Positions 1 to 17,577 of a stretch of 25,729 nt of DNA are shown here, in pieces (position 1 is the first letter of the stretch; every line of letters begins with the position of its first letter). Made by a program: the position numbers and the translations under genes. Under the pieces are notes generated by a model, which worked only from the letters and a program-made list of their open reading frames with translations, was not told the DNA's origin and searched no databases. Source of the stretch: a virus (Duplodnaviria > Heunggongvirae > Uroviricota > Caudoviricetes); IMG/VR virus record IMGVR_UViG_2585427783_000006, positions 1-25,729 of that record, one strand, 5' to 3'.

Positions 1-267
1 TTACTCTGCAGGTGAAGTCGGCCACTCAATATCAGGTGCGGTTGATGTATCAACACGGTTCAGCAACACCCGATACTTCTTCCAGGCTTCCAGCAACGAG
101 TTTTCTTCCTCCGTTGCGATCTCCAGATCTACAGCATCCTGAAGTGGCGCAATATGCTCACTGAATTCCTGGATGTAGAACTGTGTGGTGACGGTCTTCC
201 AGCCATTCGGCTCCTGCTGTATCGAAGCATACCAGGCTATTTCAATATCGCTATGCTGCGGCAGCAT
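1..267 (-). CDS. Short tail fibre assembly (Tfa)-like protein or fragment, 88 aa
   Basis: The C-terminal ~50 aa ([36 protein letters not shown]...EWP) align with the C-terminus of the intact Tfa at 2522-3049; the N-terminal 35 aa are unrelated. Stop codon is at 1-3. Confidence 0.5.
20..92. repeat. 73-bp direct repeat copy A (tfa 3' end); partner at 1069-1141
   Basis: Direct comparison: 71 of 73 nt identical to 1069-1141, same orientation. Confidence 0.9.
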
Positions 268-323
268 TTAACCCCTTGTAATTCATCGCCATAATTGATT
301 TAATTCATAAACAAAACTATAAC

Positions 324-992
324 ATGGTGAAACTAATGAAAAAAAACACACATGATGGGGCTAAAATTTACACACCACTTACCCTAAAGCTTTATGACTG
401 GTGGGTTTTGGGAGTATCAAATCGTCTTGCATGGGGATGTCCTACAAAGGAACACCTTCTTCCACACTTTCTGGAACATTTAGGTAACAACCATCTGGAT
501 ATTGGTGTTGGAACTGGGTTTTACCTTACTCACGTACCTGAGAGTAGTCTGATATCTTTAATGGATTTGAACGAAGCTAGCCTGAACGCGGCATCTACAA
601 GGGCTGGGGAATCAAAAATTAAACATAAAATTAGCCATGATGTTTTTGAACCTTATCCCGCGGCGTTACATGGTCAATTTGATTCCATTTCCATGTTTTA
701 CCTTCTTCACTGCCTGCCTGGAAATATATCTACAAAAAGCTGTGTAATACGCAATGCTGCGCAGGCCTTAACTGACGATGGAACTCTATACGGAGCCACA
801 ATTCTTGGCGATGGAGTTGTGCACAATAGCTTCGGTCAAAAACTGATGCGCATTTACAATCAGAAAGGCATCTTTTCAAACACAAAAGATTCCGAAGAAG
901 GCTTAACACATATACTCTCAGAGCATTTCGAGAATGTTAAAACCAAGGTTCAAGGTACTGTAGTAATGTTTTCCGCTTCAGGGAAAAAATAG
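324..992 (+). CDS. Class I SAM-dependent methyltransferase (moron), 222 aa; substrate unknown
   Basis: Glycine-rich motif I (LDIGVGTGFY) typical of Rossmann-fold SAM methyltransferases. The gene is AT-rich relative to flanking tail genes and sits on the opposite strand between tfa remnants. Alternative start ATG at 337. Confidence 0.65.
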   Translation: MVKLMKKNTHDGAKIYTPLTLKLYDWWVLGVSNRLAWGCPTKEHLLPHFLEHLGNNHLDIGVGTGFYLTHVPESSLISLMDLNEASLNAASTRAGESKIKHKISHDVFEPYPAALHGQFDSISMFYLLHCLPGNISTKSCVIRNAAQALTDDGTLYGATILGDGVVHNSFGQKLMRIYNQKGIFSNTKDSEEGLTHILSEHFENVKTKVQGTVVMFSASGKK

Positions 993-1046
993 CATCCAAC
1001 CGCAGCACGTTCTTGCTTAAGACGTGCTGCGGCATAATCCCAATGA

Positions 1047-1373
1047 TTACTCCCTGACAGGGTTCGTAGGCCACTCAATATCAGGTGCAGTTGATGTATC
1101 AACACGGTTCAGCAACACCCGATACTTTTTCCAGGCTTCCACCACCAGCACGACAAGATGCCGCATACAGTGACCCAGTCAGTCCAGTTTCCAGACAACT
1201 AGTGCGTCACCTTTTTGAAGGCGCTTTAAAGCACGTTTTAATCCAGGTCGGCCTGTCCTTGTTCCGCTTAATTTATCTTCAAATATTTGTTCACATCCTG
1301 CACAAACAAGAGCGTTTCGTTGCAGGTCTGTATTCTGGTCATTTGTTGATACCCTTACATAGCCAATCAGCAC
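1047..1373 (-). pseudogene. pin: Pin/Gin/Hin-family serine DNA invertase remnant: premature TGA after codon ~72, then in-frame fusion to a tfa 3' end
   Basis: The N-terminus (GTG start at 1373, LIGYVRVSTNDQNTDLQRNAL...VVWKLD) matches the invertase catalytic domain including the active-site Ser in YVRVS. TGA at 1179-1181 sits where Arg is expected. The frame continues [13 protein letters not shown] and then switches to [23 protein letters not shown] (Tfa C-terminus). The resolvase core and C-terminal HTH are absent. Confidence 0.8.
1069..1141. repeat. 73-bp direct repeat copy B (tfa 3' end fused to the pin remnant)
   Basis: 71 of 73 nt identical to 20-92. Confidence 0.9.
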
Positions 1374-1427
1374 GCTGAATCTCCCGTCCAAAAGCACAAA
1401 TCATGCCATGCAGGCCAGAAACGGCCA

Positions 1428-1453
1428 TTATCTAAAACCTCGGTTTACAGGAA
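1428..1453. other. Inversion crossover site (gix/pix-like), left
   Basis: TTATCTAAAACCTCGGTTTACAGGAA matches the remembered Gin/Pin recombination site consensus; an inverted copy lies at 3208-3233. Confidence 0.75.
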
Positions 1454-1477
1454 ACGGTAAACAGGGCCAGGAACGCC

Positions 1478-2518
1478 GTGCAAAAGAATGGCGATACCTT
1501 GTCCGGTGGGCTTACTTTTGCAAACGACTCAATCCTTGCCTGGATTAGAAATACTGACTGGGCGAAGATTGGATTTAAAAATGATGCCGACAGCGATACT
1601 GATTCATACATGTGGTTTGAAACAGGCGACAACGGCAATGAATATTTCAAATGGAGAAGCCGCCATGGCACCACAACAAAAGACCTGATGAATCTTAAAT
1701 GGGGTGCTTTGTATGTTCTTGTTAAAGCCCTTTTCGGCAGTGAAGTAAAAATATCGACAGTCAATGCACTGAGGATTTTTAATTCATCCTTTGGTGCTAT
1801 TTTTCGCCGTTCTGAAGAACACCTGCATATCATCCCTACACGAGAAAATGAGGGTGAAAATGGAGATATTGGGCCATTAAGGCCATTCAACATCAACTTA
1901 AGAACAGGAGTTGTGTCTGTTGGTAATGGTGCCAGGATTGATGGCGGGCTGGCACTTGGCACGAATAACGCGTTGGGTGGGAACTCAATTGTTCTTGGTG
2001 ATAATGATACCGGATTTAAACAGAATGGTGATGGTATTCTTGATGTTTACGCTAATAGTCAGCGAGTATTCCGCTTTCAGAATGGAGTGGCTATTGCTTT
2101 TAAAAACATTCAGGCAGGTGATAGTAAAAAATTCTCGCTATCCAGCTCCAACAACTCCACGAAGAACGTAGGGTTTAATTTATGGGGCACTTCATCAAGA
2201 CCAACTGTTGCAGAGCTTGGTGATGATTCAGGCTGGCATTTCTATAGTCAGCGAAATACAGATAACTCAGTAACATTTGCTGTTAACGGTCAGATACAGC
2301 CCAGCAACTGGGGGAATTTTGATTCCCGCTATGTGAAAGATGTTCGCCTGGGTACGCGTGTTGTTCAATTGATGGCGCGTGGTGGTCGTTATGAAAAAGC
2401 CGGACACGCAATTACCGGATTAAGAATCATTGGTGAAGTAGATGGCGATGATGAAGCCATCTTCAGGCCAATACAAAAATACATCAATGGCACATGGTAT
2501 AACGTCGTACAGGTGTAA
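1478..2518 (+). CDS. stf: Side tail fibre variable C-terminal cassette (Sv'), promoterless; coding continues upstream to the crossover site
   Basis: QKNGDTLSGGLTFANDSILAWIRNTDWAKIGFKNDAD...GTWYNVVQV matches the C-terminal receptor-binding part of lambda Stf. It lies immediately after the left crossover site and inside the invertible segment. Confidence 0.8.
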   Translation: MQKNGDTLSGGLTFANDSILAWIRNTDWAKIGFKNDADSDTDSYMWFETGDNGNEYFKWRSRHGTTTKDLMNLKWGALYVLVKALFGSEVKISTVNALRIFNSSFGAIFRRSEEHLHIIPTRENEGENGDIGPLRPFNINLRTGVVSVGNGARIDGGLALGTNNALGGNSIVLGDNDTGFKQNGDGILDVYANSQRVFRFQNGVAIAFKNIQAGDSKKFSLSSSNNSTKNVGFNLWGTSSRPTVAELGDDSGWHFYSQRNTDNSVTFAVNGQIQPSNWGNFDSRYVKDVRLGTRVVQLMARGGRYEKAGHAITGLRIIGEVDGDDEAIFRPIQKYINGTWYNVVQV

Positions 2519-2521
2519 TTT

Positions 2522-3049
2522 ATGCAGCATTTAAAAAATATTAAGTCTGGAAATCCAAAAACAAAAGAACAATATCAGCTAACAAAGAATTTTGATGTTA
2601 TCTGGTTATATACAGAAGACGGTAAAAACTGGTATGAGGAAGTGAAAAACTTTCAGCCAGACACAATAAAGATTGTTTACGATGCAAATAATATTATTGT
2701 CGCCATCACCAAAGATGCCTCCACGCTTAACCCTGAAGGTTATAGCGTCGTTGAGGTTCCAGATATTACAGCCAACCGCCGCGCTGATGATTCCGGTAAG
2801 TGGATGTTTAGGGACGGAGCTGTGGTTAAACGGATTTATACGGCAGACGAGCAACAACAACAGGCCGAATCACAAAAGGCCGCATTGCTTTCCGAAGCTG
2901 AATCAGTCATCCAACCGCTGGAACGCGCTGTCAGGCTGAATATGGCAACAGACGAGGAACGCACACGACTGGAAGCATGGGAACGCTACAGTGTTCTGGT
3001 CAGCCGTGTGGATACGGCAAATCCTGAATGGCCACAAAAACCAGAGTAA
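2522..3049 (+). CDS. tfa: Tail fibre assembly protein Tfa, 175 aa
   Basis: Directly follows the Sv' cassette; Tfa-like C-terminus ([32 protein letters not shown]). Confidence 0.8.
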
Positions 3050-5037
3050 AAATTAAGGCCCGATGTCCAGACCTGACTATCGCCACCAATATTCAGCCAT
3101 GAGCTATATGCGCGGCAGGCACCAATATTTTTGGTGAAGGTATCTTTTCCTGGAATATCTGCGCCGTTCTGGTTTTTCTGTAATGCGCCAGAAGCCTGAC
3201 TTACCGTTTCCTGTAAACCGAGGTATTCGATAACAGCGGCAACGGTCGATTTCGCAAGAATATCCCGCCCGACTTTTGTCAGGGTTGCCAGGCTGGCGAC
3301 ATCATTCCCCGTAAAATACGGAAACCTGTCTGCCGCAGTAGCAAGCCCGGCCAGCGCCGTCAGGGTGGCATCTTTCGGTTGCTTACCCGCAAGCGCGTTA
3401 GTCATGGTGGTCGCAAAATTCGGGTCGTTTCCCAGCGCCGCCGCCAGCTCGTTCAGCGTATTCAGTGCGTCAGGCGACGAGTCTACAAGTGCGGCAATCG
3501 CGGCCATCACATAAGCCGTGCTTGCGATCTGAGTATTATTAGTCCCTTTTGGCGCAGTTGGCGTTGTTGGCGTTCCGGTCAGCGCAGGACTGTTTAAAGG
3601 CGCTTTCTTGTTCGTTTCATCCATTACCGCCTTAACCGCTTTTGGTGTCGCAGCCAGCGTTTCAGACGGGCTGTTAGTGGCGCTACTGAGCTGAACTATC
3701 CCTTTTCGTGCCGTCGTTGCATCCTGAGCGGTATATTTTGCGTTAGCAAGGTCATATGCTGCCTTTACTGCCTTTGGTGTTGCCGCCAGTGACTCGGAAG
3801 TGCTGTTGGTCGCACTGCTGAGCTGAACCACACCTTTTTTCGTCGTGCTCGCATCTTCCAGAGATACGGCATCAGCAATATCCTCTGCCCGTTTTGCTGC
3901 TGTTTCGGCACGCGTTGCCGCGGATTCAGCAGCAACTTTGCTCTGAGATGCAGCCGTCGCACTGCCTGCCGCCTCTGATGCTTTCGTTGTTGCTGTCGTG
4001 GCACTACCTTTCGCTGCTGACGCTTGTCTGGTCGCCTCATCTTTTGAAGCAGACGCAGATGATGCCGATGACGCCGCTGAACCAGCGGACGATGCGGCTG
4101 CCGCCTTAGAGGAAGCAGCATTGTCTGCTGAAGTCTTTGCATTTGTTTCAGAGGTTTTTGCTGCAGAAGCAGACCTCGCTGCTGCAGTGGCTTGCTTAGT
4201 GGCTTCGCCAGCCTTCGTTGTGGCTGTTGAAGCGGATGATGCGGCGCTTTCTGCCGATTTTCCGGCGGCGGTGGCACTGGCTGAGGCCTGCCCGGCACTT
4301 GTTGACGCGGCACTGGCCGACGATGCAGCCGCTGTTTTTGAACCTGCCGCAGCTGAGGCACTCTGTGCTGCTGCCGTTTCAGAAGACTTAGCGTTTGTCT
4401 CAGACGTCTTTGCCGCCTTCGCGGAATTTCCTGCCGCCGTTGCCGAGGAAGCTGCACTACTGGCACTTGATGATGCATTCGTTTCTGATGATTTCGCTGC
4501 CTCTTTTGAGGCCGCCGCCCCCCGTGCCGAGGTGGCAGCTTCTGACGCCTTCGTGGTCGCTGTGGATGCAGAAGTGGCTGCCGATTTTTGTGATGCTGCG
4601 GCATTCGTTTCTGACGTTTTCGCGGCACTGGCGCTGGTAGCTGCCGCGCTTTTTGATGACTCTGCAGCAGCAGCACTTTTCGCTGCTTCACTGGCCTTTG
4701 TCGATGCCGTTCCTGCGCTGGAAGACGCTGACTGAGCCGACGACGCGGCCTGTCCGGCTGACGTGCTGGCTGCGCGTGCTGAGCCTGCAGCATCAGTCGC
4801 ATGGGTTGCCGCCTCACGGGCTGATGTGCTGGCATCACTGGCTGACTTCTTCGCGGCTGCCGTGTTCTGTGCCACTGCGGACGCGTTACGCGCCACCTCT
4901 TCCACCATCAGTTCAAAACGGCGCAGTGCCTCCGGACGGGCATCATCCTCCGTCATGGCACCGAGAAAATCATTCAGCGTACCGGGTCGGGAATCTTCAT
5001 ACACGGTGATGGTCCCGGCATGTGACGGCGGGAATCC
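2986..5037 (-). pseudogene. stf: Side tail fibre Stf constant region, N-terminally truncated by the J-stf deletion and currently joined to a non-homologous C-terminal stub
   Basis: GFPPSHAGTITVYEDS...long Ala/Ser-rich repeats...AVIEYLGLQETV matches lambda Stf from about residue 60 to the crossover point. After the crossover the frame reads antisense through the tfa 3' end. Confidence 0.8.
3208..3233. other. Inversion crossover site (gix/pix-like), right, inside the stf reading frame
   Basis: TTCCTGTAAACCGAGGTATTCGATAA is the inverted partner of 1428-1453 (16 bp identical in one half-site). It encodes ...IEYLGLQE... at the constant/variable junction of the tail fibre. Confidence 0.75.
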
Positions 5038-7165
5038 GGAACGATACCGACGCCGGATCGCCCTGCTGTCCCCATGCATTTACTGCCCGGACTGTCAGCC
5101 TGTAGTTCCCCAGAGCCAGTTGTGTGAAGCGGTAAGTGGTTTCCGTCGTCCGGGCCGTGCTGACCAGCCGCTCACTGCCGTCATCCGCTGCCACGGTCAG
5201 GCGAAGCATAAAGCTCACCCCCTTCACCACCTTCGGCGTGTCCCAGCGGGCCAGCACCTGGTATTCCCCGCTGTCTGCGGTGACTTCGGCGGTCAGATGC
5301 TGCACTGCTGGCGGCGTGACACCATTCACCGTGCCGCTCTGGTTACCGTCAAAGTGCGCCCCGTTATCCACGATGGCTTCTTTCTCCGGTACATGCTGCA
5401 CTGCAGTGATGGCATACGTACCGTCGTCGTTCTCACGGATACTCACACAGCGGAACAGGCGCTGGCGCAGCGTCGGCAGCTTCAGCCCCCACACGCTGTA
5501 CTCGGCAACGCCGTCAGGAACCCGGCTCACTTTCACCTTCACGCCGTCGGTGATGGACTGGACCTCCACGCTGACCGGATTGCCACTTCCGTCAACCAGG
5601 CTTATCAGCGTGGTGCCGGAGGATGGCAGCGTGATTTCACGGTCGAGCGTCAGCGTCCGGGTCTGGCTGTTCACCGCCAGCACGCGCCCGCCGGTGCTGA
5701 TACCGGCATAGTCATCATCGCAGATTTCAATGACATCGCCCGGTACATGGCGAAGCCCTTCGGCACCCACGCTGAAGTCCACGGTCTGCGTCTCCAGCAG
5801 TTCTGTTTTAATCAGCCACAGCCCGGCGCGGTGTGCCTGCCCCCGGCTGGTACAGCCAAAAGCATCCATCTTCGTGACGTTACGGCCGTAACGGGCAATG
5901 GCCTGCGTGTCCTCCACAAGCTCTGTCGCCGTCTCCCAGCCGTTGTTCGGGTCAATCCAGTTCACCTCAACGGCATTATGGCGGTCCTTCAGGGCGCTGA
6001 AGCTGTAGCGGAACGGCGCGCCATCATCCGGCATCACCACATTACTGCGGTTATAGGTCCACACCTTATCTGATGGTCGGTCCTGCACGAACGTCAGCGT
6101 CTGCCCGTTCCATACCGGCATACAGCGCATCGCCGAGCAGAAATCACTGAGCACATCCCACGCCTTGCGCTGTGTGGTCAGGTACGCATTACAGGTGATG
6201 CGCGGCTCCGTGCCGCCAAAGCCGTCCGGCACTGACTGGTCGCAGTACTGGCCGATAACATACAACGCCCATTTATCCACATCCGCCGCACCAAGACGTT
6301 TCCCCATGCCGTAGCGCGGATGGGTCAGCATATCCCACAGACACCAGGCCATGTTGTTGCTGTATGCCGGTTTAAACGTTCCGTCCCAGATACCGCTGTA
6401 TTGCCGCGTCTGCGGGTTATAATTCGACGGCACCTGCAGAATACGCCCGCGCAGATGATAATTACGGCTCACCTGCTGGCTGCCGAACTGCTCCGAGTCC
6501 ACCTGCACGCCGACCAGTACCGTGTTCGGGTAGCACTGTTTCACATCGATAATTTCGGTGTATGACGACCAGAGCGTTTTGTTCTGCAGCTGGTCTGTGG
6601 TGCTGTCCGGCGTCATCCTGCGCATCCGGATACTGAACGGGCGCGGCGGCAGGTTATCCACCACCACCGAGGCCAGATACTGTGAAGTGGTTTTACCCTT
6701 AATGGTGATGTCTTTTTCCGTCACCCAGCCACCGTTACGCTGGATCTGAACCAGCAGGCGGACTTCCGACGGATTCCTGTCCCCCTTTGAGGTGGTTTCC
6801 ACCAGTGCCTGCACGCCGAAGGTAAAACGCAGTCGGTCAATGTTTGCCGACGTGATGGTCCGGGTGATCGGCGTGTCGTATTTCACTTCCGTACCCAGCA
6901 CCGTCTCGGAGCCGGAGGATTCAAATCCCTCCGGCGGTGTCTGCTCCTGCTCACCGGCCCGGAACACCACCGTGACGCCGGATATATTGGTATTCCCCTC
7001 ACTGTCCAGCACCGGCGTACTGTTCAGCAGCACGCTTTTTAATCCATCCACCGGACCTTCAACCGGCCCTTCGCTGATAGCATCGATCACACTCAGCAGC
7101 TGCGTGGACTTCAGGTTGTCCTTCGCTTCGCGCGGGGTATGCCCCTTACTGCTGCCTTTACCCAT
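4997..7165 (-). pseudogene. J: Host specificity protein J, truncated after about residue 716; C-terminal receptor-binding region deleted
   Basis: MGKGSSKGHTPREAKDNLKSTQLLSVIDAISEGP... is near-identical to lambda J through ...ASVSFRI, then 11 unrelated codons and a stop. Full J is remembered as about 1130 aa. Confidence 0.85.
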
Positions 7166-7225
7166 TCGTCATGCTCCATAAACGATAAAACCGCCCGGAG
7201 GCGGTTTCACATAAAACGTTTTTCA

Positions 7226-7897
7226 TCAGCGACCAATCACCACAACCTGACCACCGTCCCCTTCGTCTGCCGTGCTGATCTCCTGAGAAACCACACGTGA
7301 TCCCACGCGCATTTCACCGTACAGAACGGGCAGAACATTGCCCTAGGCAACCATGTTATCCAGTGAGGAGAAATAGGTGTTTTGTTTGCCGTTATCCGTT
7401 GTCTGTGTACGGGGAGTTCTGGCTTTCGGTGCCAGCATCTGGGCCACACCACCGAGCACCATACTGGCACCGAGAGAAAACAGGATGCCGGTCATACCAC
7501 CGGCCCCAATGGCTGCCCCCCATGCTGCAAGGGTGGCTCCGGCAGTAAAGAATGATCCGGCAATGGCGGCTGCTCCCAGGACAATCTGGAATACGCCACC
7601 TGACTTGGCCCCGGCGACTCTGGGAACAATATGAATCACAGCGCCATCAGGCAGAGTCTCATGTAACTGCGCCGTCAACCCGGACGTGCTGACGTCCCGC
7701 CCGGCAATCCGTACCTGATACCAGCCATCGCTCAGTTTCTGACGAAACGCCGGGAGCTGTGTGGCCAGCGCCCGGATGGCTTCAGCCCCCGTTTTCACAC
7801 GAAGGTCGATGCGGCGGCCAAATCGTTGTAAATCCCCGTAAAGGCAGATGCGTGCCATGCCCGGTGACGCCAGAGGGAGTGTGTGCGTCGCTGCCAT
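7226..7897 (-). pseudogene. I: Tail assembly protein I with an in-frame amber (TAG) codon at 7343-7345
   Basis: MAATHTLPLASPGMARICLYGDL...SSLDNMVA then TAG where lambda has Gln. The same frame continues GNVLPVLYGEMRVGSRVVSQEISTADEGDGGQVVVIGR to a stop at 7226-7228. Confidence 0.8.
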
Positions 7898-8538
7898 TTT
7901 TCGGTATACCTCTCTCGTTTGCTCAGTTGTTCAGGAATATGGTGCAGCAGCTCGCCGTCACCACAGTAAATGGCGGCATGATTCGGCACCGATGAACCAA
8001 AACAGCACAGCAGCACATCGCCCGGCTGCGCCGCTGACAACGGCACCTGATACAGCCCTGTGGCCTCCAGATTATCCAGATAGAGATTCTGACCGTTACG
8101 CCACCAGTCATCCTCACGATGAAAATCCGGCATCTCAATCCCCGCCAGATGGTAAGCATCCCGGAACAGCGTGTAACAGTCCGTCACCCCGTGCTCAAAG
8201 CGCCGCCCGGTGAGATGCGGCACACAGCGGAATTTATGAATCGCCCCCCGGCAGACCAGCCACCACGGCAAATCACTCTGCACCTGCAACCGCCGGTCAG
8301 CCTCACTCAGCCAGGGCAGACCACCGGGGTGACTGTGGACCAGCGCCACAATCTCACCCTGCATTTCTGCCTGCAGCCAGTCCTCCGGAGCCATCCGGAA
8401 ATAATCCTCCGGCTCACCGGAAATATTCACGCCGGGAAAATATCTTTCCCCCTCCGGCGTTCTCACCACGAAGCCGCACGACTCCGCTGGCGCACATCGC
8501 CGGGCGTGCGCCAGGATCGCTGATTCTGTCTCTGTCAT
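7795..8538 (-). CDS. K: Tail assembly protein K (JAMM/MPN plus NlpC/P60-like)
   Basis: MTETESAILAHARRCAPAESCGFVV...HSHPGG... Start chosen at the ATG at 8538; the longer ORF listed in the track is an upstream extension overlapping L. Confidence 0.8.
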   Translation of the reverse strand: MTETESAILAHARRCAPAESCGFVVRTPEGERYFPGVNISGEPEDYFRMAPEDWLQAEMQGEIVALVHSHPGGLPWLSEADRRLQVQSDLPWWLVCRGAIHKFRCVPHLTGRRFEHGVTDCYTLFRDAYHLAGIEMPDFHREDDWWRNGQNLYLDNLEATGLYQVPLSAAQPGDVLLCCFGSSVPNHAAIYCGDGELLHHIPEQLSKRERYTEKWQRRTHSLWRHRAWHASAFTGIYNDLAAASTFV

Positions 8539-8542
8539 GGGA

Positions 8543-9241
8543 TTACTGCGAAAGTTTGTTAATGGAAAGGAAGCCGCCAAAGTTGCCGACGTTATTGCGA
8601 AACTTACAGCCACTCAGGCATTTGCTGCATTTATCCTTCGTGATATCGGACGTCGGCTGGTCATATTCATCCGCGACAGCCGGACCGCTATAACCGCACT
8701 CGTCACCGCGATAGGTCCAGGTGCAGGTGTTGGCCAGCATGATACGTCCCGGAAAAACAGCGCCATCCGTTTCCGTCGGCGTGGACAGTACAAAAGAGGC
8801 ACTGACTGCGCTCAGTTCGCTGCACTGCTCGATGCGCCAGCGGCTGATCACCTCCTGCTCCGGATCGGCGTCTCTGTTTCCGTTGACGAAGTTCACCGCA
8901 TCCAGAAAACGGGCGTAAACCTTACGCCGGACCACCGTTCCGCCGACCAGACTCTGCAGATCTTCCGCCATCCCGGTGACCATACCGTACAGGTTAGAAA
9001 CCGTCAGCGTGGGGCGCGTACTGGTGCCTTTGCCATTCAGTTCAAAACCACTCCCCTGAATGGGATACGGCTGATACTGTCGCCCCTGCCAGGTGACCGG
9101 CTCACCTTTTTCGTTCTGCTCATTACAGAAAAAATAACGTTCTCCACCGACCTCTGTCAGGTCGATTTCCCAGAGCACCACGCTGGCCGACTGCTCCGCA
9201 CGGGTGCATTCATTCAGTGTTTCCTGCCGGATATCCTGCAT
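8543..9241 (-). CDS. L: Tail tip protein L, 232 aa
   Basis: MQDIRQETLNECTRAEQSASVVLWEIDLTEVGGERYFFCNEQNEKGEPVTWQGRQYQPYPIQ... lambda L-like, in lambda synteny. Confidence 0.85.
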   Translation of the reverse strand: MQDIRQETLNECTRAEQSASVVLWEIDLTEVGGERYFFCNEQNEKGEPVTWQGRQYQPYPIQGSGFELNGKGTSTRPTLTVSNLYGMVTGMAEDLQSLVGGTVVRRKVYARFLDAVNFVNGNRDADPEQEVISRWRIEQCSELSAVSASFVLSTPTETDGAVFPGRIMLANTCTWTYRGDECGYSGPAVADEYDQPTSDITKDKCSKCLSGCKFRNNVGNFGGFLSINKLSQ

Positions 9242-9570
9242 CAGTTCACCACCTGTTCAAACTCTGCGCTGAACTCAACACGCAGCATACTGACCCGCGA
9301 CGACCATTTTGCGCAGGTCACCTTTATCTGCCGCCACTCATAAGGCGGCGTCCACAGAAAGGCTTTCCAGCCCCCGTGCTCAGCCAGAAACGACTCCAGC
9401 GCCGTGGCCTCCTCACGGGAGACAGACAGCGTCACGCTGTACGTTTTCAGGTCAGCGTTCAGCCCGGCAGGCGCTCGCTGAGAATAGCCATCACCAAAGC
9501 GCACCTTTCTTACGGAAGGGGCCGAAGCCACATCCATACCGGGTTTCGCTTTCCAGCGGAAGGTCTTCAT
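9241..9570 (-). CDS. M: Tail protein M, 109 aa
   Basis: MKTFRWKAKPGMDVASAPSVRKVRFGDGYSQRAPAGLNADLKTYSVTL... lambda M-like, in lambda synteny. Confidence 0.85.
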   Translation of the reverse strand: MKTFRWKAKPGMDVASAPSVRKVRFGDGYSQRAPAGLNADLKTYSVTLSVSREEATALESFLAEHGGWKAFLWTPPYEWRQIKVTCAKWSSRVSMLRVEFSAEFEQVVN

Positions 9571-12041
9571 CGTCCACCTCCGGAGAACAGACCACCATCG
9601 CGCATCTGTGCCTGAATTTCATCACGGGCCCCCTTACGGGCCATGTCATACACTGCCTTCATCATCTGTGGACCTGGCAGACCATTCGTACCGTCGTTCT
9701 GAATCACCACGTGATTGTTCTGATTAAAATTAATGCCTTCCGCCCGCCGCATCTGCGCCGGACTTCCGGCACCGCCCACATAACCACCTTCCGCATAGCC
9801 GCGCATCAGCCGGTAGAGATTTCCCACGCCAATCCGGCTGGTTGCCTCCTTCGTGAAGACAAATTCACCACGGTGAACAATCCCCGCTGGCTCATATTTG
9901 CCGCCAGTTCCCGTAAATCCCCCGGTCGCAAAATGGAATTTTGCCGCAGCAGCCTGAATGGCTGTACCGCCTGACACTGATGCGCCACCACCGGCAGCAC
10001 CGCCAATGGCGCTGCCGATACTCCCGACAATTCCCACCATTGCCTGCTTAAGCAGAATTTCTGTCATCATGGACAGCACGGAACGGGTGAAGCTGCGCCA
10101 GTTCTGCTCACTGCCGGTCAGCATCGCCGCCATATTCTGTGCAATACCATCAAAGGTCTGCGTGGCAGCACTTTTAACCTGCGACATACTGTCCGTGGCG
10201 CTCTCTTTCCACTCACTCCAGCCTGACCTGAGGCCTGCCATCCAGCTCCCGCGAAGCTGGTCTTCAGCTGCCCAGGTCTTTTTCTGCTCTGACATGACGT
10301 TATTCAGCGCCAGAGGATTATCGCCATACTGTTCCTTCAGGCGCTGTTCCGTGGCTTCCCTCGCTGCCTGCCGGTCAGTCAGCCCCCGGTTTTTCGCATC
10401 AATGGCGGCCCGTTTTGCCCGTTGCTGCTGTGCGAATTTATCCGCCTGCTGTGCCAGCGCGTTCAGGTGTTCCTGATAGGTGACCTTGTCGCCAAGTGCA
10501 GCCAGCTGGCGTTTGTACTCCAGCGTCTCATCTTTATGCGCCAGCAGGGATTTCTCCTGTGCAGACAGCTGGCGACGTTGCGCCGCCTCCTCCAGTACCG
10601 CGAACTGACTCTCCGCCTTCCACAAATCCCGGCGCTGCTGGCTGATTTTTTCATTCGCTCCACTATGCTGCTCAAGCATTTTTAGTTCAGCTTGTAACGC
10701 AAGAAGAGCTGCATGTGCTCGATCTTCCTGACGCTCTCCCGCAGCGGACTGCTTCGGCTTTTTCAGCGTCGCTTCATAGTCCTTTTTCGCCGCCGCCATC
10801 AGCGTGTTGTAATCTGCCTGCAGGATTTTCCCGTCTTTCAGTGCCTTGTTCAGTTCTTCCTGACGAGCGGTATATTTCTCCAGCGGCGTCTGCAGGCGTT
10901 CGTAAGCCTTCTGCGCCTCTTCGGTATATTTCAGCCGTGATGCCTCAGACTCGGCCCAGTCCTTTGCTGCCATCTCTCTGGCCTTTTCAAGATCGGCCTG
11001 CAACGTGGCGGCTGAAAGCCCAAGTTGCGCATTCGCTCTGTCCTCCCATGCTCCCCGGAGATTGGCAAGAAATGCTGAGGTTTTACCGCGCCGGTGGCTC
11101 CGGCTCTGATACCACTGCCATTTTTTGTCCGCCTCATCAAAAGCCTTTTCTGCTTTCTCCAGCATTCCCTGGGCAGTGTCCGGGCGACCAATATCCAGCA
11201 CCGCATCCCACATGGATTTGAATGCCCGTGCTGTCCTGTCTGCCCAGGTCTCCAGCGTGCCCATGTTCTCTTTCAGGCGGAGGGTCTGGTCATCAAACCC
11301 TTTCGTTGCGGCCTCGTTCGCCGCCTGCAATGCCCCGGCTTCATCTCCGGAACGCTGCAACTGAGCAACATACGCAATCTGCTCCGCCGTCACGTTATGG
11401 AACTGACGTGCCATCGCTGTCAGTCCCGACGTCGGGTCTGTGGTCAGCTTCCCGAAGGCTTCAGCGACCTTGTCCACCTCCACGCCGGATGCAGAGGAGA
11501 AACGCGCCACACTCTGGCTGATCGCCTCAAACTGCTCACCACCACGCACACCGGCATTCACCAGCGCCGTCAGTGACTCGCTGGTCTGGTTAAACGTCAG
11601 CCCTGCCGCCTGCCCGGCTCTGGACAGGACCAGCATACGATCTGCCGTCAGTCCCGCCTGATTGCCGGAAAGGACCAGCGTTTTGTTGAAATCGGACAGG
11701 GTTGAGTTGCCCTGATACCAGGCATACGCCAGCGCACCGGTCGCCACCGCCAGCGAGGTGGCCCCCACCATCGGCAGGGTGATCGCACCGGCAAGCCCCC
11801 TGAACATGGGGATCATCCCGCCGAAGGAGTCCTTCACCTGACCACCCTGTTGCAGCAGGATCAGCCACGGACTTTGCCCGCCTGCAAGCTGCGTGGCCAC
11901 GTCAGTGAACTGTGCAGGCAGCATACGCATGGCGGCTTTATACTGTCCGACGGAAATGGCCATTGCGGCGGCACCGGGCACCGCCGTTCTGCTGATACGG
12001 CTGAGGTTTTCAACGGCCTGCTCAAGACCTTTTATGGCCAT
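9567..12041 (-). CDS. H: Tape measure protein H carrying the N-terminal ~29 codons of tail gene Z (in-frame Z'-'H deletion fusion), 824 aa
   Basis: The N-terminus MAIKGLEQAVENLSRISRTAVPGAAAMAI matches the remembered lambda Z start; from SVGQYKAAMRMLPAQFTDVATQLAGG onward it matches lambda H. The gene begins 12 nt after the FII stop, where Z should sit. Confidence 0.75.
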   Translation of the reverse strand: MAIKGLEQAVENLSRISRTAVPGAAAMAISVGQYKAAMRMLPAQFTDVATQLAGGQSPWLILLQQGGQVKDSFGGMIPMFRGLAGAITLPMVGATSLAVATGALAYAWYQGNSTLSDFNKTLVLSGNQAGLTADRMLVLSRAGQAAGLTFNQTSESLTALVNAGVRGGEQFEAISQSVARFSSASGVEVDKVAEAFGKLTTDPTSGLTAMARQFHNVTAEQIAYVAQLQRSGDEAGALQAANEAATKGFDDQTLRLKENMGTLETWADRTARAFKSMWDAVLDIGRPDTAQGMLEKAEKAFDEADKKWQWYQSRSHRRGKTSAFLANLRGAWEDRANAQLGLSAATLQADLEKAREMAAKDWAESEASRLKYTEEAQKAYERLQTPLEKYTARQEELNKALKDGKILQADYNTLMAAAKKDYEATLKKPKQSAAGERQEDRAHAALLALQAELKMLEQHSGANEKISQQRRDLWKAESQFAVLEEAAQRRQLSAQEKSLLAHKDETLEYKRQLAALGDKVTYQEHLNALAQQADKFAQQQRAKRAAIDAKNRGLTDRQAAREATEQRLKEQYGDNPLALNNVMSEQKKTWAAEDQLRGSWMAGLRSGWSEWKESATDSMSQVKSAATQTFDGIAQNMAAMLTGSEQNWRSFTRSVLSMMTEILLKQAMVGIVGSIGSAIGGAAGGGASVSGGTAIQAAAAKFHFATGGFTGTGGKYEPAGIVHRGEFVFTKEATSRIGVGNLYRLMRGYAEGGYVGGAGSPAQMRRAEGINFNQNNHVVIQNDGTNGLPGPQMMKAVYDMARKGARDEIQAQMRDGGLFSGGGR

Positions 12042-12052
12042 ACATCCCCCTT

Positions 12053-12406
12053 TCAGCGGCGACGGTTAACGGCAGGCGGTACGCCCCGCCCAAGCCAGAG
12101 ATGACAGCTTCCGCCATCATCCGGCGAAATCCGGTCTATCCAGAAGTTTTCCTCACCGATGGTCAGCGTGTCGCCGCGCCGCAGCTGCCGCACATCATCA
12201 GTCCGGACAAACAGGGACGGGCTGGAGCCTTCAACGCGCACGCCCTGTCCGGCATAGCTGATATTTTCAGGGTCATCAAAAACACCACGTATCACAGCAC
12301 CGGACTGCTCACCGGATGTCATGGTGGCTGACGTTCCCATGTACCCGCGTATCGTTTCATCGGCGCAGGCAATGGCAGCATCGAACAGGTTATCGAAATC
12401 AGCCAC
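12053..12406 (-). CDS. FII: Head-tail joining protein FII, 117 aa
   Basis: MADFDNLFDAAIACADETIRGYMGTSATMTSGEQSGAVIRGVFDDPENISYAGQGVRVEG... lambda FII-like. Confidence 0.8.
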   Translation of the reverse strand: MADFDNLFDAAIACADETIRGYMGTSATMTSGEQSGAVIRGVFDDPENISYAGQGVRVEGSSPSLFVRTDDVRQLRRGDTLTIGEENFWIDRISPDDGGSCHLWLGRGVPPAVNRRR

Positions 12407-12417
12407 AGCGCCTCCCG

Positions 12418-12813
12418 TTATTGCATTCTGGCCAGGCCACGTTCTGTCATTTCGGCTGCCACACCGGCAGAGACACGAAACGCCGTTCCCGGCAGCACAA
12501 ATGCCACAGGTTCATCCCGCGTGGCGTGAAGTGCATCGGTATGCAGCGTCACCAGTGCCACAACCGTGACCAGAGCAGCCGTATCAGTCACGGTATCCGT
12601 CTGTGCTGATACCACCTCATTTTCATGTCCGGTCAGCGAATTTTCCGGGCTGACAGACGTGTCCTGACCGGCTGCGTCATCCGTGTCATCAAGCTCCTCT
12701 TCCAGCTCTGCCACACGGAGCGCCAGTTCTTCTTTCGTCCCCGTCAGGCTGACATCACGGTTCAGTTGCTCACCCAGCGACCGGAGACGGGCAATCAGTT
12801 CATCTTTCGTCAT
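12418..12813 (-). CDS. FI: DNA packaging protein FI, 131 aa
   Basis: MTKDELIARLRSLGEQLNRDVSLTGTKEELALRVAELEEELDD... lambda FI-like. Start at the ATG at 12813, preceded by a GGAGGAG Shine-Dalgarno sequence. Confidence 0.8.
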   Translation of the reverse strand: MTKDELIARLRSLGEQLNRDVSLTGTKEELALRVAELEEELDDTDDAAGQDTSVSPENSLTGHENEVVSAQTDTVTDTAALVTVVALVTLHTDALHATRDEPVAFVLPGTAFRVSAGVAAEMTERGLARMQ

Positions 12814-12854
12814 GGACTCCTCCACAGAGAGACAATGGCCCCGAAGGGCCATGA

Positions 12855-13880
12855 TTACGCCAGTTGAACGGACACGAACTCATCAGGATCAGCCAGCAGC
12901 ATCAGCGGTGCTGACTGAATCATGGTGAACTCTCGCGCCGGATCGCCGGATGTCTTCCAGTTTTTCGGATAACGGGGAGACGCATTAATACCCTCACTCA
13001 ATGCATCCGCATCCTGAATACAGCCATAGGTGCGCAGACCGCGTGCATGAGTGTTCCCCAGCACCATCGTGTTGTCCGGCAGGAAGTTCTTTTTGACGCC
13101 GTTTTCCACGTACTGTCCGGAATACACGACGATGGCCACATCGCCATACATTCCCTTATAAGACACCGCTTTGCCCAGGTCTTTTACCGCTGTCTCCAGT
13201 TCGGAATGAGAGCCGCGACGGGTATCCAGCTTCTCCCTGACGGCTTTGAAGGAACGGAACAGCGCCCAGCCTTTCGGGTCAAACACGATGATATTCACCA
13301 CGCCGCTGGCGTTCAGCGCGTAGGCTTCGATATCGTCGGTCGGGTCATACGTGGACTTGTCACGCTTGCTCCACTCCGTGCCGCCGGACTGCGTGATGTT
13401 GTTCGCCGCACTGCGGCCCATATCCACCTCGACCGGATCGAAGGCTTCACCGGTCATGGTGTATTTGCCCTTGAGCACGGCAGAAACGGCCTGCATCTCT
13501 TCGACCTGAGCAATGGCCTGCTCTTCGTCACGCATGTTCTGCATGATGATGCGACGGCGGCGGTAAGCCGGGTCCGCCAGATTCTGTGGATCTTCATCCG
13601 GCAGGCGACGCAGGGTCATCTGCGGATTCACCTCATGCTTCGGCTTGACATATCCCGGCGTAAATTCGGAGGTGGAGCCGCCACGGGAGCGGATAACCTC
13701 ACCGGAAACAATCGGCGAAACGTACAGCGCCATATTTACCAATCCCGGAATTTGTGAGAGATAGACTTTCTCCGTGGTGAAGGGATAGCTTTCACGGAAA
13801 AAGAGACGCAGAAACAGCGGATCAAACTTAAATTTCTGCTCATTTGCCGCCAGCAGCTGGGCGGTTGTGTACATCGACAT
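12855..13880 (-). CDS. E: Major capsid protein E, 341 aa
   Basis: MSMYTTAQLLAANEQKFKFDPLFLRLFFRESYPFTTEKVYLSQIPGLVNMALYVSPIVSGEVIRSRGGSTSEFTPGYVKPKHEV... near-identical to remembered lambda E. Start at the ATG at 13880. Confidence 0.9.
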   Translation of the reverse strand: MSMYTTAQLLAANEQKFKFDPLFLRLFFRESYPFTTEKVYLSQIPGLVNMALYVSPIVSGEVIRSRGGSTSEFTPGYVKPKHEVNPQMTLRRLPDEDPQNLADPAYRRRRIIMQNMRDEEQAIAQVEEMQAVSAVLKGKYTMTGEAFDPVEVDMGRSAANNITQSGGTEWSKRDKSTYDPTDDIEAYALNASGVVNIIVFDPKGWALFRSFKAVREKLDTRRGSHSELETAVKDLGKAVSYKGMYGDVAIVVYSGQYVENGVKKNFLPDNTMVLGNTHARGLRTYGCIQDADALSEGINASPRYPKNWKTSGDPAREFTMIQSAPLMLLADPDEFVSVQLA

Positions 13881-14248
13881 AAAAAAATCCCGTAAAAAAA
13901 GCCGCACACCAGCGATGCAATATCCTGCTGGTGGATGAACGACAGAATCTTCACCGACACCACCGATACCAGCACCGCACACAGCGCATCTGCCGATGTA
14001 CCGTCATACCCTGTTTTTGATGCAATCCAGGCTGACAGCACACGCGCTCCCAGCACGCCGACAATAAACGACACCAGAAAATGCGCCACCACGCGCCAGA
14101 CTGAAAGTGACTGCGGCATCGTTGCCACAAATAACGCCCCGGCGAACGCGCCAAACACAATCCCGAAATCCATCCCGGTAAACAGCCCGAATACCGTCGC
14201 GCCACCCAGCGCCGCAGCCGTGCCGGAACCGGATAAGGGTTCAGACAT
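13736..14248 (-). CDS. Predicted 3-TM membrane protein (holin-like?); its 3' end reads into the E start region and is probably disrupted
   Basis: MSEPLSGSGTAAALGGATVFGLFTGMDFGIVFGAFAGALFVA... has three hydrophobic helices in the first ~125 aa. The last ~45 codons are low-complexity (CRCTQPPSCWRQ...) and overlap the E start by about 145 nt. Confidence 0.45.
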   Translation of the reverse strand: MSEPLSGSGTAAALGGATVFGLFTGMDFGIVFGAFAGALFVATMPQSLSVWRVVAHFLVSFIVGVLGARVLSAWIASKTGYDGTSADALCAVLVSVVSVKILSFIHQQDIASLVCGFFYGIFLCRCTQPPSCWRQMSRNLSLIRCFCVSFSVKAIPSPRRKSISHKFRDW

Positions 14249-14732: not shown

Positions 14733-14809
14733 TGGCGCGTTGTACTGGATTCGAACCAGTGACCGATTGCTTAGAAGGCAATTGCTCTGTCCGGCTGAGC
14801 TAACAACGC
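14733..14809 (-). tRNA. argN: tRNA-Arg (anticodon UCU; argN/argU-like)
   Basis: Folded by hand: 7-bp acceptor stem GCGTTGT/ACAACGC, D-arm GCTC/GAGC, anticodon loop CTTCTAA, T-loop GGTTCGAATCC, 3' GCCA. Confidence 0.85.
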
Positions 14810-14906: not shown

Positions 14907-14982
14907 TGGTGGCCCTTGCTGGATTTGAACCAGCGACCTGGCGATTATGAGTCGCTCGCTCTCACCACTGAGCTAAAGGGCC
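14907..14982 (-). tRNA. ileZ: tRNA with CAU anticodon, ileX/ileZ-like (tRNA-Ile2 reading AUA; could alternatively be tRNA-Met)
   Basis: Sequence closely resembles remembered E. coli ileX. Acceptor stem GGCCCTT/AAGGGCC, anticodon loop CTCATAA, T-loop GGTTCAAATCC, CCA encoded. Confidence 0.8.
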
Positions 14983-15031: not shown

Positions 15032-16081
15032 TCAAACGATTAAATCCTGAACTTCCCTGACTGTCTGTTCAAAACGTCCTGTCTCCAGCTCAACACCAAT
15101 CGCACAACGCCCCAGTGCCATCGCCGCTTTTACCGTTGAACCTGAACCCATAAAAAAATCTGCAACCAGGTCTCCCGGACGACTGCTCGCGTTGATTATC
15201 TGCTGCAGCATTTCTGCCGGTTTTTCGCACGGATGTTTTCCTGGATAGTACTGCACCGGTTTATGCGTCCAGACATCGGTGTACGGAACCTGCGCCGTCA
15301 CACCGAAATACCGCCGCAAATTTTTATATTCACTCAGCAGTTCCGTGTACTGCCGGTTCAGCTCACTGTATGTGCTGACCAGCTGGTGGTGTGGCTTTTC
15401 CAGTTCCCCGCGCTGATGTTTTTCTGCCGCAACACGCGCAAACAACGCCTGCAATTTGTTGTAATCACCCTCGTTCGGTAACTGCCACTGACTGGTACCA
15501 AACCAGTGCGAAGCCATGTTTTTCTTTCCGGTGGCTTCCGCTATCTGTTTTGACGTTATTCCCAGTGATTTACGCGCATCACGAAAGTAAGAAATCAGCG
15601 GGGCCATGACGTGCTGTTTTAGCTCGCGCCCCTGTGCCACATAGCCATCATCTTTCGGGCGATACGGTCCCTGATAATGTTCTGCAAACAGAATGCGCTC
15701 TGTTGCCGGAAAATACGCCCGCAGACTTTCCTTATTGCACCCGTTCCAGCGTCCGGACGGCTTCGCCCAGATAATGTGGTTCAGCACATTAAAGCGCTCA
15801 CGCATCATGATTTCGGTGTCAGATGCCAGGCGATGACCACAGAACAGGTAAAGACTTCCGGTAGGCTTCAGTACCCGCCAGAACTGCGCCAGACACTGGT
15901 CCAGCCATTTCAGGTAATCATCGTCGCCCTCCCACTGGTTATCCCAGCCCTCGGGCTTCACTTTAAAGTATGGCGGGTCTGTGACTATCAGATCGACAGA
16001 ATTTTCCGGTAAGGTCTGGATAAACTCCAGGCAATCAGCGTTGATTAACTCACAACTGGATATTTTTACAGTATTAATCAT
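15032..16081 (-). CDS. Orphan DNA methyltransferase (N6-adenine or N4-cytosine, beta-class), 349 aa
   Basis: DPPY motif IV near the N-terminus (LIVTDPPYF) and motif I (FFMGSGST) near the C-terminus. No adjacent restriction endonuclease gene. Confidence 0.8.
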   Translation of the reverse strand: MINTVKISSCELINADCLEFIQTLPENSVDLIVTDPPYFKVKPEGWDNQWEGDDDYLKWLDQCLAQFWRVLKPTGSLYLFCGHRLASDTEIMMRERFNVLNHIIWAKPSGRWNGCNKESLRAYFPATERILFAEHYQGPYRPKDDGYVAQGRELKQHVMAPLISYFRDARKSLGITSKQIAEATGKKNMASHWFGTSQWQLPNEGDYNKLQALFARVAAEKHQRGELEKPHHQLVSTYSELNRQYTELLSEYKNLRRYFGVTAQVPYTDVWTHKPVQYYPGKHPCEKPAEMLQQIINASSRPGDLVADFFMGSGSTVKAAMALGRCAIGVELETGRFEQTVREVQDLIV

Positions 16082-16231
16082 AGATCAATAAGCACTTCTC
16101 TGATAGGCTCATACCGCTTTTGCGCAAAGCAGATGGGCCTGAGGTTTGCTTGTGACCCCAACGCATGAGCAGATGGCTGGCAGGTGCCGCTAACACCCCC
16201 CAGCCGCCCATTACCACAAATTAAAAAGCCT

Positions 16232-16411
16232 TCACTGCGGAAGGCGTCTGTAACAACCGAACTGATAATCTGCCAGACCCGCCATAACAAGCTGAGTCAG
16301 TATTAACTGGCAGCGTTCGCGTGAAAGGTAAGTATTCTGCGCAATTTCCCCGACGGTCGCCGGTTCGGTGATGCTTAATTCATTAAACACCACTCTGGCG
16401 GTTTCGGTCAT
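16232..16411 (-). CDS. Hypothetical small protein, first gene after tR'; start uncertain (ORF extends to 16552)
   Basis: A CAGGA Shine-Dalgarno sequence precedes the ATG at 16411 (MTETARVVFNELSITEPATVGEIAQNTYLSRERCQLILTQL...). Confidence 0.35.
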   Translation of the reverse strand: MTETARVVFNELSITEPATVGEIAQNTYLSRERCQLILTQLVMAGLADYQFGCYRRLPQ

Positions 16412-16550
16412 ATCCTGCTGTTTTAGCATGCCTTTTTCCCTTTCCCAGTTAACGTGACATACCAATACCTCTTGTCGAAAAAGCCAGCAAGCTGAAAGAC
16501 CGGCATTCGCAACCACCAGCGCATTTAACGTCCTGTACCGCTTTTCGGGC

Positions 16551-16578
16551 ACAAAAAAACCCGCATAAAGCGGGTTCT
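16551..16578 (-). terminator. Rho-independent terminator, candidate tR' (target of Q antitermination)
   Basis: On the minus strand: AACCCGC-TTTAT-GCGGGTT hairpin followed by TTTTTTT, about 85-110 nt downstream of the Q stop. Confidence 0.7.
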
Positions 16579-16660
16579 TTCAGGTGTCCATGTCTGCTAT
16601 TCGCCTCGCGGTATAGCTTTGCGAAGCGTAGCTGGATTGAAACAGTTTATGCGTAAAAAA

Positions 16661-17215
16661 TCAAGACATTTTTTGAGCAAACGATTCTCGCATAGGGATG
16701 TATAGCGCATATTCAGCAACAGCTAACCAATTAGCAATTCGCTTTTCGCATGTACTAAAACACCATTCCGGGTGCACCTCATTCAACAATTCAGCCATTT
16801 TGCGTTTACTCATCCCCCGCCCTTCGTACCTTTGCCGCAGGATATCAATCAATCCAGGATAACGTGCAAGCGCTTTACTTATCACCCCATCAATGCGTAA
16901 CGCCTCTGCATCAGTACAGTGAGACAACCAGCTCTTCTGTCTGCCAGCGATCATCTCTCGCAAGAATGCTTCCAGCTCTGGTTTATCAATCCCTGACTCC
17001 CTGATTCTACGCAGGGCTTCATTGATTGCGGTTTTTGTCAGTTTTTTGGATGCCAGCAACTGATTGAACATATTTCCTGGTTTGCCACCACCTATATACG
17101 ACCAACGCCCCCACATCCGTAATTTCCCCTGGATCCAGACGGCTTCCAGCGTTTTTAGACGTAAATGCTCGCCGCTTTTGCCTGTAATTTCCGGGTATAT
17201 CATATTTACGATCAC
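16661..17215 (-). CDS. Q: Antitermination protein Q (late gene regulator), 184 aa
   Basis: Immediately downstream of rusA with start/stop overlap, as in other lambdoid prophages; followed by a promoter-like region and terminator. Family assignment from synteny and weak motif resemblance (KLRMWGRW). Confidence 0.6.
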   Translation of the reverse strand: MIVNMIYPEITGKSGEHLRLKTLEAVWIQGKLRMWGRWSYIGGGKPGNMFNQLLASKKLTKTAINEALRRIRESGIDKPELEAFLREMIAGRQKSWLSHCTDAEALRIDGVISKALARYPGLIDILRQRYEGRGMSKRKMAELLNEVHPEWCFSTCEKRIANWLAVAEYALYIPMRESFAQKMS

Positions 17216-17577
17216 TCACTCTCAATTTTGTAAATCTTCACGCCCAGCCGCCCCCCAGGAACGCGCTGACCGCGCACAATATTGATTTCATCAAACTGCT
17301 CGTCGTCTATGAGAAGTCCGGCATGCGTCAGCGCATCCAGTGGTGCTTTCAGGATATTGTCCAGGTCACGACGACGTTTATCCGGTGGCTCTGCAATAAT
17401 CTTTATCGCCAGCCTTCCGGACAGGTTTAATTTCAGCCGCTGCTGGCGAACAATAAGCGCCACATCACGGCGATAACGCTCACCGGCTTTTGATACAAAA
17501 TATGTGCTGCCACGACGTCGCCAGTAAGTGTTCACCGTTGGCGGGTAAGGCAAAACAAATTCTATGCGTTCAGTCAT
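17212..17577 (-). CDS. rusA: Holliday junction resolvase RusA, 121 aa
   Basis: Size and motifs (PPDKRRRDLDNILKAPLDALTHAGLLIDDEQ) match the RusA family. Confidence 0.8.
   Translation of the reverse strand: MTERIEFVLPYPPTVNTYWRRRGSTYFVSKAGERYRRDVALIVRQQRLKLNLSGRLAIKIIAEPPDKRRRDLDNILKAPLDALTHAGLLIDDEQFDEINIVRGQRVPGGRLGVKIYKIESE

Follow-up and report, generated by a model that had tools for sequence, protein, structure and literature searches.

In the 25,729-nt stretch of DNA analysed here (the window), the first part of a lambda-type J gene runs out of frame into what is left of an stf gene. The junction between the two is very probably a pseudogene-forming deletion scar, produced by one illegitimate event during the ordinary erosion of a cryptic lambdoid prophage that lies beside potB in a clone of enterotoxigenic E. 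coli (ETEC). This reading draws on observed breakpoints, a short microhomology, missing domains, inheritance of the junction in several isolates and further deletions in the same prophage. The features at the centre of the analysis are the following:

4997..7165, minus strand: truncated J (tail-tip/host-specificity) pseudogene, hereafter J′ (translation, comparison with the parental gene, Pfam)
5028..5038, minus strand: deletion junction (three-way alignment with both parental sites in L005, overlapping BLAST blocks)
2986..5079, minus strand: truncated stf frame, its product hereafter Stf′ (translation, comparison with parental Stf, Pfam)
5077..5079, minus strand: candidate ATG for an N-terminally truncated Stf (anti-SD pairing, promoter scan)

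A megablast search of the 25 kb against 5,426 complete E. coli genomes recovered the same prophage beside potA-potB in ETEC strains. The copy next to potB in ATCC 43896 (ETEC; L005) is almost intact, an IS66 in the large terminase gene being its sole disruption, and carries a J of 3480 nt (1159 aa), an Ail/Lom gene of 600 nt, an stf of 3090 nt (1029 aa) and a tfa. The window matches it in blocks of 99.9-100% identity. In sister strains the prophage occupies an identical site and still has J (1159 aa) and stf (1029 aa) at full length together with lom, so that the J of the window is not a naturally shorter variant, the outcome that would have spoken against an earlier reading of this DNA made from the sequence alone.

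Compared with the intact sister prophage, 2267 bp (L005 8374-10640) are absent from the window. The BLAST block that pairs L005 6536-8373 with window 3201-5038 and the block that pairs L005 10641-17570 with window 5028-11957 overlap at the junction, with J sequence upstream and stf sequence downstream. Both flanks are colinear with the prophage of ATCC 43896, E1433 and E8 and approximately 100% identical to it (comparisons with L003, L004 and L005). A perfect 6-bp microhomology, CGGATT (5038-5033), is present at both parental breakpoints, of which one copy was kept, and an imperfect one, CGGATT[G/C]CCGC (CGGATTSCCGC; 10/11), reaches 5028. The three-way alignment of the junction, which contains no inserted or filler DNA, reads:

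J parental site: TCGTTCCGGATTGCCGCACC
stf parental site: GTGGACGGATTCCCGCCGTC
window: TCGTTCCGGATTCCCGCCGTC

Because 2267 is 2 mod 3, J and stf are joined out of frame, as the sequence-only reading had proposed. What was found is a break in homology; as no statistical pattern is involved, the question of chance does not arise. Alignment of the region with the J-lom-stf genes of lambda, which the same reading had called for, was run by blastn (NC_001416 15000-23500) and gave two blocks that meet at the junction with the proposed coordinates and frames: window 7400->5028 corresponds to lambda 15270-17642 (J, 95% identity) and window 5038->4325 to lambda 19844-20557 (stf/orf-401, 84% identity). 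The end of J similarity at ...SVSFRI and the onset of Stf similarity at GFPPSHAG in a different frame were placed correctly, the I711 codon occupying 5035-5033 and the G15 codon starting at 5037. The material removed consists of the last 448 J codons, the entire lom, which is present in the ATCC 43896 parent and had rightly been reported as missing, and stf codons 1-65. The losses from J and stf were likewise recognised, with sizes that need revision against the parent (448 residues instead of about 400, and 65 codons instead of about 60).

The J-like ORF (7165->4997) encodes 722 aa. Its residues 1-711 are identical to those of the 1159-aa J of ATCC 43896, and after ...GDPASVSFRI the protein continues out of frame for 11 residues, PAVTCRDHHRV, up to a stop codon at 4999-4997. 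In Pfam searches J′ retains FNIII-A_GpJ, Phage-tail_3 and the first Ig_J (E-values 1e-41 to 1e-43) and no longer contains Ig_J_second, Phage_Tail_Tip or the receptor-binding Ig_GpJ_C, all of which are found in the parent. Without these C-terminal domains, J′ is classed from its domain content as a truncated pseudogene of the lambda-type TipJ family, a presumably non-functional member. Translational coupling at the J′ stop was also considered and rejected: the ATG in GTATGA (5001-4999) lies in the third frame and opens an ORF of just 9 codons.

The stf-like ORF (5079->2986) encodes 697 aa counted from ATG 5079. It begins with MHGDSRAIRRRYRS, its first 14 codons being J sequence in another frame, and continues with Stf sequence, GFPPSHAG and GFPPSHAGTITVYEDS; from residue 15 it is identical to parental Stf residues 66-677. 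Of PF08400 (prophage tail fibre N-terminal; 134 profile positions), the domain that anchors the fibre to the tail, Stf′ retains positions 65-134 only, and its own start is missing. The central fibre repeats (Phage_fiber_2, PF03406, E = 4e-36, two stretches) and the Ala/Ser-rich shaft are present, and Gp34_trimer was not detected in Stf′ by Pfam. Further downstream the frame meets two other features of the region:

3201..3233, unstranded: right crossover site, a gix/pix-like inverted repeat (pairs with 1428-1460; 33 nt, 94% complementary; I1)
3064, unstranded: second deletion junction, 1350 bp, inside the invertible segment (BLAST blocks against L003, L004 and L005; junction alignment)

The constant part of stf ends at the crossover site. 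Beyond it (3233-3201) the frame covers 137 nt of one variable segment, passes over the junction of the 1350-bp deletion at 3064 and terminates at 2986 in antisense tfa sequence. In its present orientation, Stf′ has neither a C-terminal receptor-binding part nor a tfa on the same strand. An intact alternative stf C-terminus (1478-2518, plus strand) and its tfa (2522-3049, plus strand) are present, inverted in the window, and the segment has the opposite orientation in E1433 and ATCC 43896. Since it lacks the defining N-terminal features of its family, Stf′ is likewise assigned, from its sequence, to the pseudogenes.

The suggestion that the ATG at 5077-5079 could start a truncated Stf describes something possible that the evidence does not favour. 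This ATG lies 83 nt inside the J′ ORF, and the anti-SD duplex in the 20 nt upstream of it reaches -3.1 kcal/mol, as against -6.0 for the native stf start, -7.1 for lom and -5.6 for J. A scan of 4700-5700 found no sigma-70-like promoter or terminator-like site, and the C-terminus of the product is lost. The open frame that follows the ATG is nevertheless long, at 697 aa, and is called as a gene in one deposited assembly, which runs against non-expression; the exact 697-aa sequence is absent from the protein collection.

The J-stf deletion is one of four that separate the window from L005. The 1350-bp deletion at 3064 accounts for the loss of one tail-fibre-assembly gene and of the greater part of one alternative stf C-terminus. 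At 11955-11957 a deletion of 2655 bp, with a 3-bp overlap, took out T and G as well as the tail tube gene and U, and left Z codons 1-29 fused in frame with the tape-measure gene. The largest, of 10,653 bp at 13902-13908, joins the end of the major capsid gene to a holin gene and takes the head decoration protein, protease, portal, terminase and endolysin. Most of Z and the holins are missing as well relative to L005, and a chaperone is among the losses from these three deletions. The other three junctions in the prophage show 1-3 bp of perfect homology. With genes for particle formation and for lysis lost, the prophage is, judged by its gene content, defective (cryptic).

The distribution of these junctions among sister strains (99.9-100% identical) fits a tree without homoplasy. 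Junction 22179|32833 is common to the window, E1433 and E1620, and junction 17570|20226 to the window, E8 and E1648; junctions 11153|14780, 20613|24037 and 25582|33123 are confined to E8 and E1648. The J-stf junction (8373|10641) occurs only in the lineage of the window. This nested pattern without homoplasy makes the J-stf deletion a late, lineage-specific step of erosion.

The sequence of events proposed here begins with illegitimate recombination between two CGGATT copies, at J codons 710-711 and stf codons 65-66, with the loss of 2267 bp. The deletion probably arose by replication slippage or by microhomology-mediated joining of a break, a mechanism that we infer from the scar; a microhomology of 6 bp is suggestive, and fits slippage, break repair and Red/RecET-type recombination alike. 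Given the length of the deletion, J′ enters stf in the wrong frame, reads 11 codons and stops, and the stf remainder is left without its native start, promoter or ribosome-binding site. In the stepwise erosion of the prophage, this deletion is the most recent, lineage-specific step. Neither J′ nor Stf′ is expected to be able to build a tail, and we infer from the sequence that the remnants are neither expressed nor functional.

An alternative origin for the junction itself would be a chimeric join or a collapse, during assembly, among the several lambdoid prophages of the genome. J and stf are indeed multi-copy in E. coli (at 4 places in the median genome and at 8 in ATCC 43896), and the contiguous junction occurs in none of the 5,426 complete E. 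coli genomes; five places with at least 80% query coverage proved to be two-piece matches spanning 1.25-1.65 kb in unrelated arrangements, for example a Qin-type remnant. An exact 34-mer over the junction had no match in genome_contigs and none in metagenome_contigs, and no record of the phage collection covers the junction, J homology there ending at query position 473 (window 5028). The exact 722-aa J′ is, however, deposited in GenBank as KEL32154.1 ('phage tail family protein', E. coli 5-366-08_S4_C2), and 7 contigs (15-52 kb) encode it, drawn from independent samples, assemblies and assemblers, which include NCBI GCA_000714095.1, NCBI GCA_049987545.1 and the Logan assembly of SRR31865360. 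These contigs cross the junction and are 100% identical there. L006 and L007 match the window over 1-13165 at 100% identity; over 3201-13165, L008 differs from it by one mismatch. The remaining deletions are nested and phylogenetically consistent, and the overlap of 6-11 bp is too short for an assembler to use: de Bruijn and overlap assemblers cannot join on it. Recovery of the same junction across independent assemblies makes an artefact extremely unlikely, and the junction is restricted to the sublineage of the window. A literature search found no specific description of strain 5-366-08_S4_C2 or of the deletion, and the main text of PMC4462620 makes no mention of the strain by that name.

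A real junction could also have been made by a Pin/Gin-type invertase acting at a secondary site or by an IS-adjacent deletion, since a Gin/Pin-type invertible segment lies 1.8 kb away and IS elements occur in related prophages, as does the IS66 of the ATCC 43896 copy. But the intact prophage contains only two gix-like sites, both at the borders of the invertible segment and neither near a breakpoint of the J-stf deletion, on which ground invertase-mediated deletion was rejected; the local invertase gene, moreover, is truncated to 72 codons. The three-way alignment leaves no IS sequence or terminal repeat at the junction, and no IS is annotated at the parental breakpoints (L005 8374 and 10640). 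The invertible segment is not the cause of the junction, and a site-specific or transposition-linked origin as a whole is exceedingly improbable. Microhomology with nothing inserted and with neither a gix-like site nor an IS at the breakpoints is the signature of an illegitimate, microhomology-mediated deletion. It is very unlikely, too, that the remnants still serve the host, through a truncated Stf made from ATG 5079 or another internal start, or through a +1 frameshift within the 83-nt overlap that would yield a J(1-711)-Stf fusion. The persistence of the 697-aa frame and its annotation as a gene would favour such a use, and the stf frame is indeed +1 relative to J′, with a junction (ATT CCC G) whose proline codon could slip in principle. 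No recognised frameshift stimulator was found, however, and the weak SD and lack of a promoter-like site speak against initiation at ATG 5079. Half of the N-terminal domain of Stf is gone, its C-terminal domain and chaperone are also lost in this orientation, and particle formation is precluded by the deletion of tail tube, chaperone and head genes.

A deletion scar of this kind has close counterparts. The J-lom-stf region of phage lambda (NC_001416 15505-21973) holds homologous genes in the same order (95% DNA identity in J and 84% in orf-401/stf), and in the intact sister prophage J, lom, stf and tfa are arranged exactly as in lambda. The window differs in lacking the equivalent of lambda 17643-19843, and with it the receptor-binding end of J, lom and the stf start; its Stf also has an invertible C-terminal segment, which lambda does not. 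That segment resembles the Gin/Cin/Pin/Hin segments (Mu G, P1 C, e14 P) in its 33-nt inverted repeats with AAACCTCGGTTTACAGGAAAC, and in its alternative fibre C-termini, each with its own tfa, which are found in both orientations among sister strains; it departs from them in its truncated invertase gene and in the deletion, in the window, of one of its halves. In the Qin-type prophage of strain 2017-03-3CC, as in the window, fragments of J and stf adjoin each other following internal deletions; there they are annotated 'incomplete; partial in the middle of a contig', and the breakpoints differ from those of the window and are independent of them. K-12 likewise has cryptic lambdoid prophages with truncated J/stf remnants in Qin and Rac. 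A general model of prophage decay by deletion, reportedly put forward by Bobay, Touchon & Rocha in 2014, accommodates the window. The clean junction, the short direct repeats with one copy retained and the absence of filler are those of microhomology-mediated illegitimate deletions in bacterial chromosomes, from which no feature of the window distinguishes it.

The event is thus of a kind already known from the classical cryptic lambdoid prophages, and implies no new system and no departure from known biology. The one mildly notable point is how many different deletions have accumulated in sister prophages that are otherwise nearly identical: at least eight internal ones were found among the near-identical copies (the window, E1433, E8, E1620 and E1648, each compared with ATCC 43896 at 99.8-100% nucleotide identity, and counted as six). 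This might suggest that the potB prophage is eroding unusually fast, and in parallel, in one ETEC clone, owing to an active deletion-promoting process or to strong selection against expression of tail, Lom or lysis genes, in place of neutral decay. We regard this as unlikely; if true, the J-lom-stf deletion would be a selected event, removing for example the Lom outer-membrane protein or a toxic J or Stf product.

As an ordinary erosion scar, the junction has consequences mainly for annotation and for strain typing. The label 'phage tail family protein' suits neither ORF; both should be annotated as pseudogenes ('incomplete; partial in the middle of a contig'), and the prophage should be scored as defective, its lineage having lost this lom, a member of the Ail/Lom outer-membrane protein family. 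The J-stf junction offers a clean clonal marker for this ETEC sublineage, and, together with the other nested deletions, it could serve to order recent divergence among otherwise identical isolates.

Besides the J-stf junction, three others in the window mark internal deletions relative to the almost intact copy of the same prophage in ETEC ATCC 43896 (L005).

13902-13908: junction of a 10.65-kb deletion, with a truncated holin gene now abutting the sequence that immediately follows the major capsid gene
9567-12041, minus strand: fused Z-tape-measure ORF of 824 aa, with its deletion junction at 11955-11957
3064: site of a 1350-bp deletion within an invertible segment; the missing sequence is 3582-4931 of L005

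The 10.65-kb deletion cost the prophage its decoration protein, protease, portal, terminase and endolysin, and its junction is common to the window, E1433 and E1620. In the tail region, a 2655-bp in-frame deletion removed T, G, the tail tube gene and U, leaving a tape-measure gene that now carries Z codons 1-29. This junction is also found in E8 and E1648. The third deletion, with a junction homology of only 1-2 bp, eliminates one of the tfa genes together with the greater part of a variable stf C-terminus. It lies in a tail-fibre segment of the Gin/Pin/Cin type, in which inverted repeats bracket alternative stf C-termini and tfa genes.

1428-1460 and 3201-3233: 33-nt inverted repeats of the segment, containing AAACCTCGGTTTACAGGAAAC
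1478-2518, plus strand: intact alternative stf C-terminus, inside the segment
2522-3049, plus strand: tfa gene of that C-terminus, inside the segment
1179-1397, minus strand: resolvase-family invertase ORF, truncated to 72 aa, adjoining the segment

Among the sister prophages, E8 has the segment intact, without the 1350-bp loss, and oriented as in the window; in E1433 and ATCC 43896 it is inverted relative to these two. Since the local invertase ORF is truncated, any switching of the segment would depend on an invertase provided in trans. The Logan contig that carries the window's J-stf junction (L008) stops exactly at the crossover repeat, at window position 3201, as expected if assembly was confused either by the coexistence of both orientations or by the repeat.

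Further ORFs and RNA genes are found along the window.

324-992, plus strand: gene for a class I SAM-dependent methyltransferase, with a tfa fragment on either side, at the end of the prophage
3998-4735, plus strand: 245-aa ORF antisense to the Ala/Ser-rich stf shaft
14733-14809 and 14907-14982, minus strand: tRNA-Arg(tct) and a CAT-anticodon tRNA
19225-19399, minus strand: sok antitoxin RNA, adjoining hokD
41-244, minus strand: Rfam match to IS009 RNA, overlapping what is left of tfa at the end facing potB

The methyltransferase gene is kept in all sister strains and is likely a cargo (moron) gene. The antisense ORF, an analogue of lambda orf206b, is annotated as a gene in deposited assemblies; it is probably a by-product of repetitive, GC-rich codon composition rather than a gene. 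The CAT-anticodon tRNA is assigned to Met by ARAGORN, whereas RefSeq annotates it as Ile in sister strains.

Sister ETEC isolates of Moroccan, Bangladeshi, Argentinian and Indonesian origin were compared together with the window. Against L005, these five copies (L003, L004, L009, L010 and the window) show a nested arrangement of eight or more distinct internal deletions. E1648 also carries a large deletion within stf, which measures 1152 nt there. The five copies share 99.8-100% identity with that of ATCC 43896, and the deletion polymorphism is unusually rich for so little point divergence.
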